Of a stretch of DNA of 64,000 nt, positions 23,590-30,965 are shown in pieces. A model generated the notes under the pieces. It was given only the letters and a program-made list of their open reading frames with translations, did no database searches and had not been told where the DNA came from. Numbering within the stretch: position 1 is the first letter of the stretch; every line of letters starts with the position of its first letter. The stretch lies in NCBI RefSeq assembly GCF_013315695.1, contig NZ_CP054353.1. One strand, given 5' to 3'. The position numbers and the translations under genes are program-made. Source of the DNA: Escherichia coli (GTDB lineage Bacteria; Pseudomonadota; Gammaproteobacteria; Enterobacterales; Enterobacteriaceae).

Positions 23590-25035
23590 TCAAATATTTT
23601 CGCCATTGTTGGCGATGAGATCCCGATACCAGTAAAACGACGCTTTACGTATCCTTTCCAGCGTTCCCTTCCCTTCGTTGTCTTTATCGACATAAATCAT
23701 TCCGTAGCGTTTTTTCATTTCCCCTGTTCCGGCAGAAACCAGGTCAATGCAGCCCCACGGTGTGTAGCCAATTAAGTCAACACCATCTTCAACAACGGCT
23801 TTTTTCATTTCCCGAATATGGGAAGCAAAGTACTCAATGCGATAGTGATCGTTCACCGTGCCGTCAGCTTGTCTCTGGTCAACCGCACCCAATCCATTTT
23901 CGACAATAAACAGCGGCAACTGGAAATGATCCCAGAACCAGTTGAGTGAATAACGTAGCCCTGCCGGATCAATTTGCCATCCCCATTCGGATGTATCGAT
24001 ATAAGGGTTGCTGACCAAATCTCGTGGTTCAACATAATTCAGTTGCGGGTTATCTGGCGAAAATTGCGTAGTAAAAGACATGTAGTAGCTAAAACCGATA
24101 AAGTCGACACATCCTCTGGCAAGAATCGTGTTATCTTCTGGTGTGATATCGAGGTTGAATCCTTTCCTGGCAAAGTAATTCAGCATATGTTGCGGATAAT
24201 ATCCACGCGCATGAACATCAGTAAACCAGTAACGACGATGCATCGCTTTCGTGGCCATCATCATATCGTTGGGTGCACACGTCAGAGGATAGATGGGGCA
24301 CATGGCGATCATACAGCCGATATTAAATTCAGGATTGATCGATTTTCCAGTCTGTACCGCCAGGGCACTGGCAACTAACTCGTAATGTACCGCCTGGTAC
24401 ATTATTTGTTCGCGCTCATTGATATCTTCCTCTGGCGAATACAAGATACCGGAATTAGTAAATGGACACAGGCTTTCGCTGAAATTCACCTGATTATTGA
24501 TTTCGTTAAACGTCATCCAGTACTTTACTTTTTCTTTATAGCGCGTGAAGACCGTTGATGCGAAGCGGATGAAAAAGTCGATCAGTTTACGGTGTCGCCA
24601 GCCACCATATTTTGTCACCAGATGATAAGGCATCTCAAAATGCGAAAGCGTCACCACAGGCTCCATTCCCTGCTTCAGGCATTCATCGAACAGATCATCA
24701 TAAAATTGTAAACCCTCTTCATTCGGCTCCTGTTCGTCACCTTGCGGAAAGATTCGTGTCCAGGCAATGGAAGTTCGAAAGCATTTGAATCCCATCTCGG
24801 CAAATAACTGAATATCTGTTTTATAGCGATGATAAAAATCAATTGCTTCATGATTGGGATAATTAAGCCCGTCGATAATGCCTTCTGTCACTTCACGCGG
24901 CACCCCGTGAGCGCCAGCAGTCATCACATCAGCGATACTGATGCCTTTTCCTCCTTCATTCCAGCCACCTTCCAACTGATGCGCGGCTACCGCGCCACCC
25001 CATAAAAAACCTTTTTTAAATCCTGACATACACAA
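23590..25035 (-). CDS. Glycoside hydrolase family 1, 6-phospho-beta-glucosidase
   Basis: 481 aa with GH1 motifs (FLWGGA, TFNEIN, ENG); last gene of a PTS operon. Confidence 0.85.
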
Positions 25036-25053
25036 CTCCTTAACTAAAATAGA

Positions 25054-26727
25054 TTACCACCAGACTTCCGCCTGGATGCCGGCCATAAATTCGTCTTTGC
25101 TGTTCTCATTAAACTTAAAATTAGATAATTCGTTATCCAGAATATTGATATACGTGCCATAGAAGCGAATTTCTGGTCGTGAACCTAAAATGCTTTCACC
25201 CACTTTCAATGCATGCCAGAGTGTCGTTTTATAAGCCGATTCATTTAGTGTTACACCCTGCTGTGCTTTGTTCTGTTGCTTAAACCAGCCTAATTCAAGC
25301 CCCGTCTGATTCCATGTATTCCAGATCCAGGCCGGTCTTATTACGGTGCGAATACTGTCAAAATCACTATGAGCGCCACTTTCATAACTATAAACATCTT
25401 CGCCATGAGAATAGACAAGCGCGTTAGCCATAATAATATTGTCAGTAAGATACATCTCGCCCTGAGAGATTAAACGCCAGGCGATCCCATTGGTATGGTC
25501 ACCATAGTAATAGCGACCATGCGCCATCGTGTTACTGGCATCTGAGAAACTGGCAAAACTGCTGGCATAGGAATTATTGGCAACCTGTAACGTAAATTCA
25601 TTAAACGTATCGCGTTGCAGTTTTTGCCGTAAAACAGAAGTCAGCATCCAGCTATCTTTCATTTCAAAATAACTGTCGTCATTTTCATTATCTTGTTGTT
25701 GATCCGTTTTATTAGGTGCGGAATATTTAGCCATTAATGATAATGTTGCATCATCCCATAACGGGATATTGCGATAACGAACATCCACAGAATTAGTATT
25801 CATCTGACTGGTACGCGTAAAATCACGGGAGTAAACATCGACATCATCTCGGCTTAAGGACATATCAAACAGCCCTACACCAAGTGCCCAGTTTTCAATC
25901 CCCACACCCGCAGCGACATCCGTGGTTAAGGTTTTCCAGTCCAGCATTTGGATCTCATATTGCGGGAGTTTATGTTTGCCTACCCAGAAGTCTGCCTCTG
26001 GCGCGAAGGGTAAAAAACCTCGCGTTGTCAGATAAATATCACTGAACTGCATGATATTTTCATTGGCACTGTCACCAAACCAGGCATCGTTATACTGCTC
26101 ACCTACGTTGCCATCATAGGTAACGACCGCATTTGCCGTTTTACCGTCCTGATTATAAACACGCTGATTTAAGGTTAAGTCAAACCAACCGCTCATCTCG
26201 TTACCAAAACGTCCCAGAGAACCCGCTGCATAAGTTTGTGGTGAGCCATGATTTCCGGTACCCCAACCTGAGCGAAAGTACCCCTGATAGCTGAACCCAA
26301 TATCATCTTTTATATATTTACTGATATCTTTCAGGGTCACGCTTTCGATAGTGGTTTTATCGCCTTTACTTTCAATAACGGCAATTTGCTGCGATCCATT
26401 TATAGTATGTGCTGCGGCAGACGAGTTCTGTTCACCGTTTTCATTTTTGATGTTATCAGCAACGGGAGATGGAGCTGATATTTCGGCAAGCGAGGCCGAT
26501 TGATATTTATTTTCTGTGATGCTTTTTTGTAATGTCGAAAGTCGGAATTTATATACTCCCAGTTCATTCTGTGTTGCTCTCAGCTCTTGTTTATTTTGCG
26601 ACAATTCATTTTCAAGCAGTTCAAGGCGCTGCTCTATGGTTAATTTTGTTGCCATCGCGTTCAATGGAAACAATGCTGTAATAATAGAAAAAGACAAAAG
26701 GCTGACGTTAAGCGTCTTTATATTCAT
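25054..26727 (-). CDS. Carbohydrate-specific outer membrane porin (LamB/ScrY/BglH-like) with N-terminal coiled coil
   Basis: 557 aa, signal peptide, coiled-coil N-extension, aromatic-rich beta-barrel ending in terminal W; operon context. Confidence 0.7.
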
Positions 26728-26782
26728 GACTTATCCTTAAGAGTGTAATAATTTCCTCCAGCTATCGCACTGGAGGAAAAAA

Positions 26783-27100
26783 TCAGGCATGGAGCTCTTT
26801 TCTTAATGAAATGATTTCCCTGGCTAAATCCTGGCATAATATTGCATTCATCAAATGATCCTGTGCATGTACCAGAATGAGATTAACTTTTATTTTGCCA
26901 CAGCCTTCATCCTGACTAATTAACGCGGTCTGAATCTTATGCGCCTGAAGACAGGCGGATTCAGAACTGGCCATTAGCTGAGTTGCGCCCTGCCAGTCTT
27001 TTTGCCCGGCACAACGTATGGCTTCCATCGCATCAGAACGGGCCTGTCCTGCGTTGACCAGTAACTCCATAACAAGTTCTTCATCTGCAAACATCAACAT
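26783..27100 (-). CDS. PTS lactose/cellobiose-family EIIA
   Basis: 105-aa helical IIA resembling ChbA. Confidence 0.8.
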   Translation of the reverse strand: MLMFADEELVMELLVNAGQARSDAMEAIRCAGQKDWQGATQLMASSESACLQAHKIQTALISQDEGCGKIKVNLILVHAQDHLMNAILCQDLAREIISLRKELHA

Positions 27101-29722: not shown

Positions 29723-29756
29723 TTAGTTCAGGTAATAGTTTAATAAAATTAGATTC

Positions 29757-30068
29757 TTACTCTTGCAGTAGTTTCATCGCAAATTCAAGAACTGCCTGTC
29801 CGTTCATGCTGCCATAGTCTTTCATCTCGATAACAGCTACAGGCATTTTCCCCTGTGCAACAGCTTCAATCTCTGGTTTCTGAAAGCGAACTTGCGGGCC
29901 AAGTAAAACAACGTCAACTTCGTTATTTTTAATTTTCCCTTTAGCCTCTGCAATCGCCAATGCGGAAATATTAACTTCAAGTGAAATAGCGTTAGCATGA
30001 TCAATCATACGTTTAACCAGCATACTGGTTGACATGCCCGCAGCGCAAACTAACAATATCTTTTTCAT
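29757..30068 (-). CDS. PTS lactose/cellobiose-family EIIB
   Basis: 103 aa with N-terminal MKKILLVCAAGMSTS phosphocysteine motif (ChbB-like). Confidence 0.85.
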   Translation of the reverse strand: MKKILLVCAAGMSTSMLVKRMIDHANAISLEVNISALAIAEAKGKIKNNEVDVVLLGPQVRFQKPEIEAVAQGKMPVAVIEMKDYGSMNGQAVLEFAMKLLQE

Positions 30069-30266
30069 ATTTTCCCTTACTGGTATATAACAGATTACAT
30101 TGTGTAAATATCATATCCCGCAGTAGCTATACGTCCTGGTACATTGATCACAGTAATACAGCACTAAAGTTGTTCAACATCAGGGTGATAATTAAACGAC
30201 TCGGCCATAGGATAAACCAATCAGGACTCAACTCCTTGTTTTCAATGGCTCTTAAAAGGTGCAAAA

Positions 30267-30965
30267 GTGATTTTTCAAAAGATTGCCCGCTTACTTAAAT
30301 CCGAGATCAATGGCTATTCATGGCATGTTGGTGATTTGTTGCCGTCAGAAGCTGAACTCGCTGTTCGTTATAATGTTTCGCGTAATACCCTGCGTAAGGC
30401 ATTATCCTTGCTGGAAGGCGAAGGAATTATTCATAGAAAGCATGGTTCAGGAACATACATTCAAAAAAAGAATTTTGTTGCACACATTGATCACATGAAC
30501 AGCTTCAGTGAAATTGCGCATAAAAGCGGCAAGGAGGCAGGAAGTCAGATTATGAAATTTGAAGTGCAGGATGCTTCTCCCCCTATTGCGACTGAGCTGA
30601 ATTTAGTGACTGGTGAGCAGGTTTATTACATAAAGAGACTGCGATTCATTGAGGATAATGCAGCACAATTAGAAGAAACGTGGATGTCAGTGGCACGTTT
30701 TCCTGATTTAACCGTAGCACATATGCAAAAATCCAAATTTTCGTATATTGAGAACGAATGCGGGATCAAAATCATTGGCACCTTTGAAACTTTCTCCCCT
30801 ACTTTTCCTACCCCAGAAATCGCCAGTATTTTACGGATCAGCCCACGGGATCCCATACTTAAAATTCAGACCCAGGCTGTGGACAGTAACTCTATTCCGC
30901 TGGATTATTCGTTACTTTACAGCAATATTTTCGAGTTCCAGGTAAAGTACTTTTTCCCGCGATAA
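30267..30965 (+). CDS. GntR-family transcriptional regulator divergent from the PTS operon
   Basis: 232 aa; N-terminal GntR HTH (LPSEAELAVRYNVSRNTLRKAL) plus UTRA-like effector domain; start codon uncertain. Confidence 0.75.
   Translation: MIFQKIARLLKSEINGYSWHVGDLLPSEAELAVRYNVSRNTLRKALSLLEGEGIIHRKHGSGTYIQKKNFVAHIDHMNSFSEIAHKSGKEAGSQIMKFEVQDASPPIATELNLVTGEQVYYIKRLRFIEDNAAQLEETWMSVARFPDLTVAHMQKSKFSYIENECGIKIIGTFETFSPTFPTPEIASILRISPRDPILKIQTQAVDSNSIPLDYSLLYSNIFEFQVKYFFPR

Follow-up and report, generated by a model that had tools for sequence, protein, structure and literature searches.

The accessory locus between marB and eamA of Escherichia coli is very probably the bgc beta-glucoside operon, split in one genome by a recent ISKpn26-like insertion

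What pathway is encoded by the cluster of phosphotransferase system (PTS), porin, and glucosidase genes that separates marB from eamA on the Escherichia coli contig NZ_CP054353.1 (RefSeq assembly GCF_013315695.1)? The whole stretch of DNA analyzed here, 64,000 nucleotides in length, is called the window below, and an earlier reading of its letters (the original prediction) described at this position a 7.4-kb accessory unit with an unknown substrate and with a dedicated porin that was taken to suggest uptake of a larger oligo-beta-glucoside. Our analysis indicates that the marB-eamA locus is very probably the bgc operon of E. coli, which means that it is already known and common, and that the insertion sequence (IS) found within it is ordinary in kind and private to this genome. 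Taken as a whole, we give a probability of roughly 80% to the reading in which this is the bgc locus, in which it encodes a cellobiose-family PTS for beta-glucosides, and in which a recent IS most likely exerts a polar, blocking effect.

The identification rests upon the agreement between published descriptions of bgc and the content of the window. One report, in its summary of a 2009 study by Neelakanta, Sankar, and Schnetz, describes five genes in an operon under positive control by the GntR-type regulator BgcR and gives cellobiose, arbutin, and salicin as the substrates of an operon that is cryptic and is used mainly at low temperature (PMC3585215). Another report counts four cryptic beta-glucoside operons in E. 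coli, bgc among them (PMC4488073). Furthermore, a group of six genes, c1955-c1960, is listed for strain CFT073 under the heading "PTS system, cellobiose specific," and these genes also occur in HS, in UTI89, and in several strains of group B1 but are absent from MG1655 and O157:H7 (PMC2831201). The window contains a corresponding five-gene operon for IIB, IIC, IIA, a porin, and a phospho-beta-glucosidase, along with a divergent GntR-type regulator, and exactly this locus is carried at marB-eamA by the extraintestinal pathogen CFT073 and is missing from K-12 strain MG1655. A sensitive blastn search of E. coli with the genes for the porin and the glycoside hydrolase family 1 (GH1) enzyme returned only this locus, bglH-bglB (66%), and bglA, and no second porin-containing candidate for bgc was found in E. 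coli at blastn sensitivity. The 2009 study itself (Appl Environ Microbiol 75:2284) reportedly gives the arrangement bgcR / bgcE-F-I-H-A, with the porin BgcH as the product of the fifth gene, with CRP-dependent expression, and with activating mutations in the promoter. The substrate that the original prediction had called unknown is thus addressed by a published operon of the same architecture with known substrates, and bgc represents a characterized orthologous operon for the locus.

Alignment with MG1655 confirms that the locus is accessory relative to that strain, in which it is absent and in which marB and eamA are adjacent, as the original prediction had stated, with a gap of 30 bp. Homology to K-12 stops at window position 23535 and restarts at 31020, within the last codons of eamA, which delimits an accessory segment of 7,484 bp (23536..31019) with a GC content of 42.8%, compared with ~47-49% in the flanks. 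All six genes were correctly placed from the outset, with the regulator divergent from the genes for IIB-IIC-IIA-porin-GH1 (list of open reading frames [ORFs], NCBIfam). The 7.4-kb unit is likewise real, but 1,195 bp of it are an IS5-family element that had been overlooked and that splits the operon. After subtraction of the IS and of one copy of its target duplication, 6,285 bp of the segment remain.

A pangenome BLAST, as the original prediction had proposed for defining distribution and boundaries (the latter now at 23536/31019), places the locus in ~2,500 of the 5,426 complete E. coli genomes. More precisely, without the IS, it is found at 97-100% identity in 2,482-2,509 of these genomes (~46%). 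The carriers include B1 and B2 backgrounds, O104:H4, O111:H8, Shiga toxin-producing E. coli (STEC), enterotoxigenic E. coli (ETEC), S88, and commensals, and the placement between marB and eamA was seen in all four carriers with inspected annotation (SE11, strain 2D, MSB1_4I, and CFT073). Among the copies from CFT073 (B2), SE11 (B1), and the window, identity is at a level of 97-98%, equal to that of the flanking core genes, and this fits a putative history of long residence, vertical descent, and repeated loss. In other genera, the six-gene cassette is found at other chromosomal sites with porins that are 75-83% identical; it lies at another chromosomal site in Citrobacter and between cysE and trmL in Salmonella enterica subsp. 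salamae. A contig of Kluyvera georgiana contains a variant cassette (6003-10531) that encodes a GntR regulator, IIB, IIC, and a 557-aa orthologue of the porin with 75% identity; a HAD/S6PP-type phosphatase comes next, and IIA and GH1 are missing.

The element that interrupts the operon displays the properties of the IS5 family. It has terminal inverted repeats (GGAAGGTGCGAA), it is flanked by 4-bp TTAG target duplications at 28524-28527 and 29723-29726 that fit the YTAR target, and it encodes an intact IS5-type DDE transposase of 326 aa (28674-29654, minus strand; NF033581 at 7.2e-110). It shares 99.2% sequence identity with annotated ISKpn26 elements. The site is empty, with a single TTAG, in SE11 and CFT073, and a 240-bp probe for the IS junction had no full-length match in the 5,426 complete genomes. 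Strain MSB1_4I, which lacks the IS, differs from the window over 15.1 kb by one single-nucleotide polymorphism (SNP) in addition to the IS. The insertion is thus both private to this genome and very recent. It is located in the spacer between the IIB and IIC genes, 34 bp past the IIB stop and 83 bp ahead of the IIC start, and is codirectional with the operon. Between the end of the IS and the start of IIC, the promoter scan found no sigma-70-like promoter on the strand of the operon. Most likely, then, the IS would act as a polar block that separates the genes for IIC, IIA, the porin, and GH1 from the operon promoter, with the IIB gene still connected to it. Such polarity would most likely add to the silencing of an already cryptic operon.

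The region between the regulator gene and the IIB gene contains a CRP-like site at 30137-30152, with 2 mismatches to TGTGA-N6-TCACA, and a candidate -10 element (TATGAT, minus strand, 30115->30110) that is 29 bp from it. The TGTGA half-site and the position of the -10 element are conserved among E. coli, Citrobacter, Salmonella, and Kluyvera. We infer that this -10 element belongs to the operon promoter, in which case the center of the CRP-like site would be at approximately -41.5, corresponding to class-II geometry, and the conserved site would be consistent with the reported CRP dependence. Over the whole window, the CRP pattern occurs at the level of chance (28 found versus 28.4 expected), and the site is credited because of its position and its cross-genus conservation. 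The scans of the region for promoters (18 found versus 16.2 expected) and terminators (9 versus 6.9) are at background level and were used solely with regard to the missing promoter between the IS and the IIC gene. On the plus strand, a sigma-70-like match at 30087-30114 (ATAACA-16-TATCAT, 9 of 12) overlaps the putative operon -10 element back to back; as a consensus match only, it marks a possible promoter for the regulator gene.

The PTS proteins have the features of the Lac family, namely, a separate IIB with an N-terminal active Cys, an IIA with a conserved His, and a Lac-family IIC. The IIC protein matches TIGR00410 (lacE subfamily) with 335.6 bits versus a cutoff of 236, and IIB matches NCBIfam IIB models, and its only Cys is residue 8, in the stretch MKKILLVCAAG. 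The IIA protein, which contains the motif VHAQDH (His76 and His80) and is annotated identically in the RefSeq records of SE11 and CFT073, matches NCBIfam IIA models with E values of 5.7e-31 to 1.5e-18, all of which are under the equivalog cutoffs. None of the cellobiose- or chitobiose-specific equivalog cutoffs in NCBIfam is reached by the PTS proteins, and the models therefore assign no substrate specificity to them. The GH1 enzyme scores 1030.6 bits with PRK09589, versus a cutoff of 624, and is 50% identical to BglB. It contains the motifs NEI at 175, ENG at 377, and the phosphate-binding S...KKRYG at 432, such that the two catalytic glutamates and the phosphate-binding S...K-x-Y motif accompany the above-cutoff family score, and the exact protein sequence is found on at least 1000 public contigs. 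The regulator matches GntR-family models in NCBIfam (e.g., PRK09764 at 1.1e-40), its orthologues have the Pfam domains GntR plus UTRA, and its coding sequence of 699 nucleotides is likewise used by RefSeq in SE11 and CFT073.

The description of the 557-aa porin as LamB/ScrY-like with a coiled-coil N-terminal extension is supported by Pfam. The LamB domain (PF02264; 2.4e-81) covers residues 147-557 and model positions 1-378 of 378, and Sugarporin_N (2.1e-6) matches residues 30-56, a predicted N-terminal periplasmic coiled coil of the ScrY/BglH type that aligns with the N terminus of BglH. Identity to BglH is 53% over the full length. The score with the NCBIfam model for the maltoporin LamB subfamily (3.9e-60, 204 bits) is under the cutoff of 394, and the protein is therefore not a maltoporin proper. 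In an alignment with LamB that has only 27% identity, most of the greasy-slide and ionic-track positions of the LamB structures appear to be retained: Y6, F227, W420, R8, R33, and D116 are the same, Y41 is W, and E43 is D. In the same 27%-identity alignment, Y118 is replaced by K, R109 by Q, W358 by L, and R82 by S, and W74 is aligned to Ala215, with Trp216 one column further. The channel may be wider than that of LamB, as is that of ScrY, which is likewise without Y118 and R109. BglH, a monoglucoside porin, has the same residues as this porin in place of Y118, R109, and W358, and a wider channel is therefore no argument for a larger substrate. A phmmer search with the porin against the sequences of all PDB chains gave no match even at an E value of ≤10, which is unexpected for the LamB family, given that structures of LamB and ScrY exist, and which may reflect a filter or bias effect.

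Several points weigh against the interpretation given above. What the analysis itself shows are the gene content, the family memberships, the distribution, and the anatomy of the IS; the probable identity with bgc, including its substrates, its porin BgcH, its gene order, its CRP dependence, and the presumed correspondence to c1955-c1960, is drawn from the literature. The Bgc names are absent among the cluster members of all six proteins, where only generic names are found. The title of the 2009 study reportedly stresses septicemic and uropathogenic strains, whereas here, B1, STEC, ETEC, and commensal genomes frequently carry the locus as well, which is no contradiction of that title. As for the IS, its transposase gene is codirectional with the operon, and some read-through into the IIC gene is possible.

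Among the rival explanations, the original prediction amounts to an uncharacterized pathway in which the porin points to a larger oligo-beta-glucoside, e.g., cellodextrins, as the true substrate. It could draw upon the loss of the LamB constriction residues Tyr118 (Lys) and Arg109 (Gln), upon the possibility that a cryptic operon used at low temperature has a physiological substrate other than the laboratory test sugars, and upon the presence of the cassette in plant- or environment-associated genera (Pantoea, Kluyvera, and Enterobacter). However, IIC and GH1 belong to ordinary disaccharide-type families, no periplasmic or secreted glucanase is encoded in the locus, and substrates of this operon type have been published (PMC3585215). 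The same substitutions are also found in BglH, which serves aryl-beta-glucosides as the porin of the bgl operon (PMC2646131), and with this precedent, a dedicated porin alone implies no larger oligosaccharide. The step from porin to larger substrate in the original prediction thus does not hold, and we regard a cellodextrin pathway of this kind as quite improbable. The effect of the IS could also be the opposite of a block, i.e., transposase read-through or IS5-end effects, as at bgl, glpFK, and flhDC, could activate or rewire the operon and drive IIC-IIA-porin-GH1 without BgcR/CRP. The 3' end of the codirectional transposase gene faces IIC, at 83 bp from its ATG, and the cryptic bgl operon is, according to two reports, classically activated by insertions of IS5 and IS1 (PMC8836124, PMC11043490). 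Here, however, the insertion is inside the operon and not upstream of its promoter, the minus strand between the IS and IIC has no sigma-70-like promoter, and an IIB gene left on the silent native promoter would mean a permease that is still without its partner. The control segment is, moreover, contiguous in 2,496 of the 2,509 carriers, and none of the 13 disrupted ones has the junction found in the window. Activation by the IS is therefore unlikely in our judgment. A separate idea, that the control segment is hit recurrently by IS elements as at bgl, was rejected given that only 13/2,509 carriers are disrupted.

A broader combination, in which a widened ScrY-like porin admits the true substrate, either a beta-glucoside of plant origin or a short cellodextrin, and/or in which the distal genes have been rewired by the IS and freed of BgcR/CRP, likewise has little probability. 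The origin of the segment as a self-mobile genomic island inserted at marB-eamA has been considered as well. Its low GC content (42.8% versus ~49% in the flanks) and the different chromosomal sites of the cassette in Citrobacter and Salmonella salamae would agree with such an island, but no integrase, tRNA, or flanking direct repeats were found at the locus, the right boundary falls within the 3' end of eamA, and the sole mobile element is the IS, which is missing in every other carrier examined. The divergence between B2 and B1 copies is that of the flanking core genes. With neither an integrase nor a repeat and with divergence the same as in the flanks, the self-mobile island was rejected as extremely improbable.

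With the bgc identification retained, the pathway would operate as follows. The sugar would cross the outer membrane via the porin BgcH and would then be imported and phosphorylated by IIC, IIB, and IIA (BgcF, BgcE, and BgcI), and the GH1 enzyme BgcA would split the 6-phospho-beta-glucoside. Transcription from a single promoter upstream of the IIB gene would be activated by the divergently encoded GntR/HutC protein BgcR together with CRP. In the genome studied here, the ISKpn26-like insertion would leave IIB on this native promoter and would cut off IIC, IIA, the porin, and the glucosidase. The features to which this proposal refers are collected in Table 1.

Table 1. Features of the marB-eamA interval in window coordinates; bgc names denote the proposed equivalents
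Feature	Coordinates	Strand	Basis or remark
marB	23315-23533		Left neighbor of segment; marRAB on left side
GH1 6-phospho-beta-glucosidase, bgcA equivalent, 479 aa	23590-25029	-	ORF list, NCBIfam
LamB-family carbohydrate porin with N-terminal periplasmic coiled-coil extension, bgcH equivalent, 557 aa	25054-26727	-	Pfam
PTS lactose/cellobiose-family IIA, bgcI equivalent, 103 aa	26783-27094	-	NCBIfam
PTS lactose/cellobiose-family IIC permease, bgcF equivalent, 440 aa	27122-28444	-	NCBIfam
IS5-family (ISKpn26-like) insertion sequence, 1,195 bp	28528-29722	-	Inverted repeats, transposase, empty sites
PTS lactose/cellobiose-family IIB, bgcE equivalent, 103 aa, first gene of operon	29757-30068	-	NCBIfam
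Divergent control region, GC 37%	30069..30266		Candidate CRP site and -10 element
GntR/HutC-type regulator, bgcR equivalent, 232 aa, GTG start	30267-30965	+	NCBIfam
eamA	31010-31930		Right neighbor of segment

At the boundaries of the segment, several differences from K-12 were seen. The right boundary is inside eamA, and the C termini of EamA therefore differ between carriers and noncarriers of the locus; translation of the aligned DNA (window 31010-31022) gives an ending of ...KVRG in the window versus ...KVGS in K-12. A hairpin, GTCAGGCTCTG-ATCA-CAGAGCCTGAC, follows marB at the left boundary (window 23536-23575), and another, ACGCACAGA...TCTGTGCGT, follows the regulator gene at the right boundary (window 30968-31005). 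The marB-eamA gap of K-12 has one different hairpin, GGCCCCGA-CATC-TCGGGGCC. The 8-mer CTGACATC is present at both boundaries, and the K-12 sequence is not the product of a simple deletion between these two copies.

An Rfam scan found no RNA elements inside the locus. Outside it, a match to STnc560 (280 bits) lies at window 33507-33720 (minus strand), in the interval downstream of ydeE that in MG1655 corresponds to mgtS, mgtT, and mgrR, and a match to isrC (145 bits) lies at window 53084-53206 (minus strand). Elsewhere in the window, yneK (19088-20203) is an intact ORF of 371 aa; in strain 2D, this gene is split by another copy of ISKpn26, and in CFT073, a fragment of it remains.

The practical value of these results lies mainly in annotation. 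RefSeq labels for the locus are generic ("carbohydrate porin" and "PTS sugar transporter subunit IIC"), and with a link to bgc, annotation would improve in ~46% of the complete genomes of E. coli. As a natural mutation, the IS insertion is dated and represents a single event, with 1 SNP in 15 kb relative to the nearest IS-free genome, and it could mark the strain or provide a naturally occurring polar mutant for bgc. Beyond annotation, the importance of the locus is small, and it raises no new biological question.

In comparison with known systems, the locus shares with the chb operon (chbBCARFG) the separate IIB, IIC, and IIA proteins of the lactose/cellobiose family. The best NCBIfam match of its IIA is to the chitobiose IIA model, with 107 bits, below the cutoff of 148, and all of its matches to the chb equivalog models are under the respective cutoffs. 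The chb operon has an AraC-type regulator and a GH4 enzyme and is not known to include a porin. The bgl operon (bglGFB-bglH) resembles the locus in that it is a cryptic beta-glucoside PTS pathway with its own LamB-family porin, and both are AT rich. However, bgl relies upon the glucose-family IIBCA permease BglF and the antiterminator BglG, whereas the locus has separate IIB, IIC, and IIA proteins of the lactose/cellobiose family and a GntR/HutC regulator. The porin itself is like ScrY and LamB in having the full LamB barrel domain, with the Sugarporin_N extension of the ScrY type, and unlike LamB in its identity of 27% and in the changes of Y118 to K, R109 to Q, and W358 to L. The IS is in no way unusual for IS5/ISKpn26, and only its insertion site is new. 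With the bgc operon, finally, the locus agrees in species, in its six functions, in the reported gene order, and in its presence in the uropathogenic strain CFT073 and not in K-12, and the copy in the window differs from bgc by the private ISKpn26-like insertion between bgcE and bgcF.

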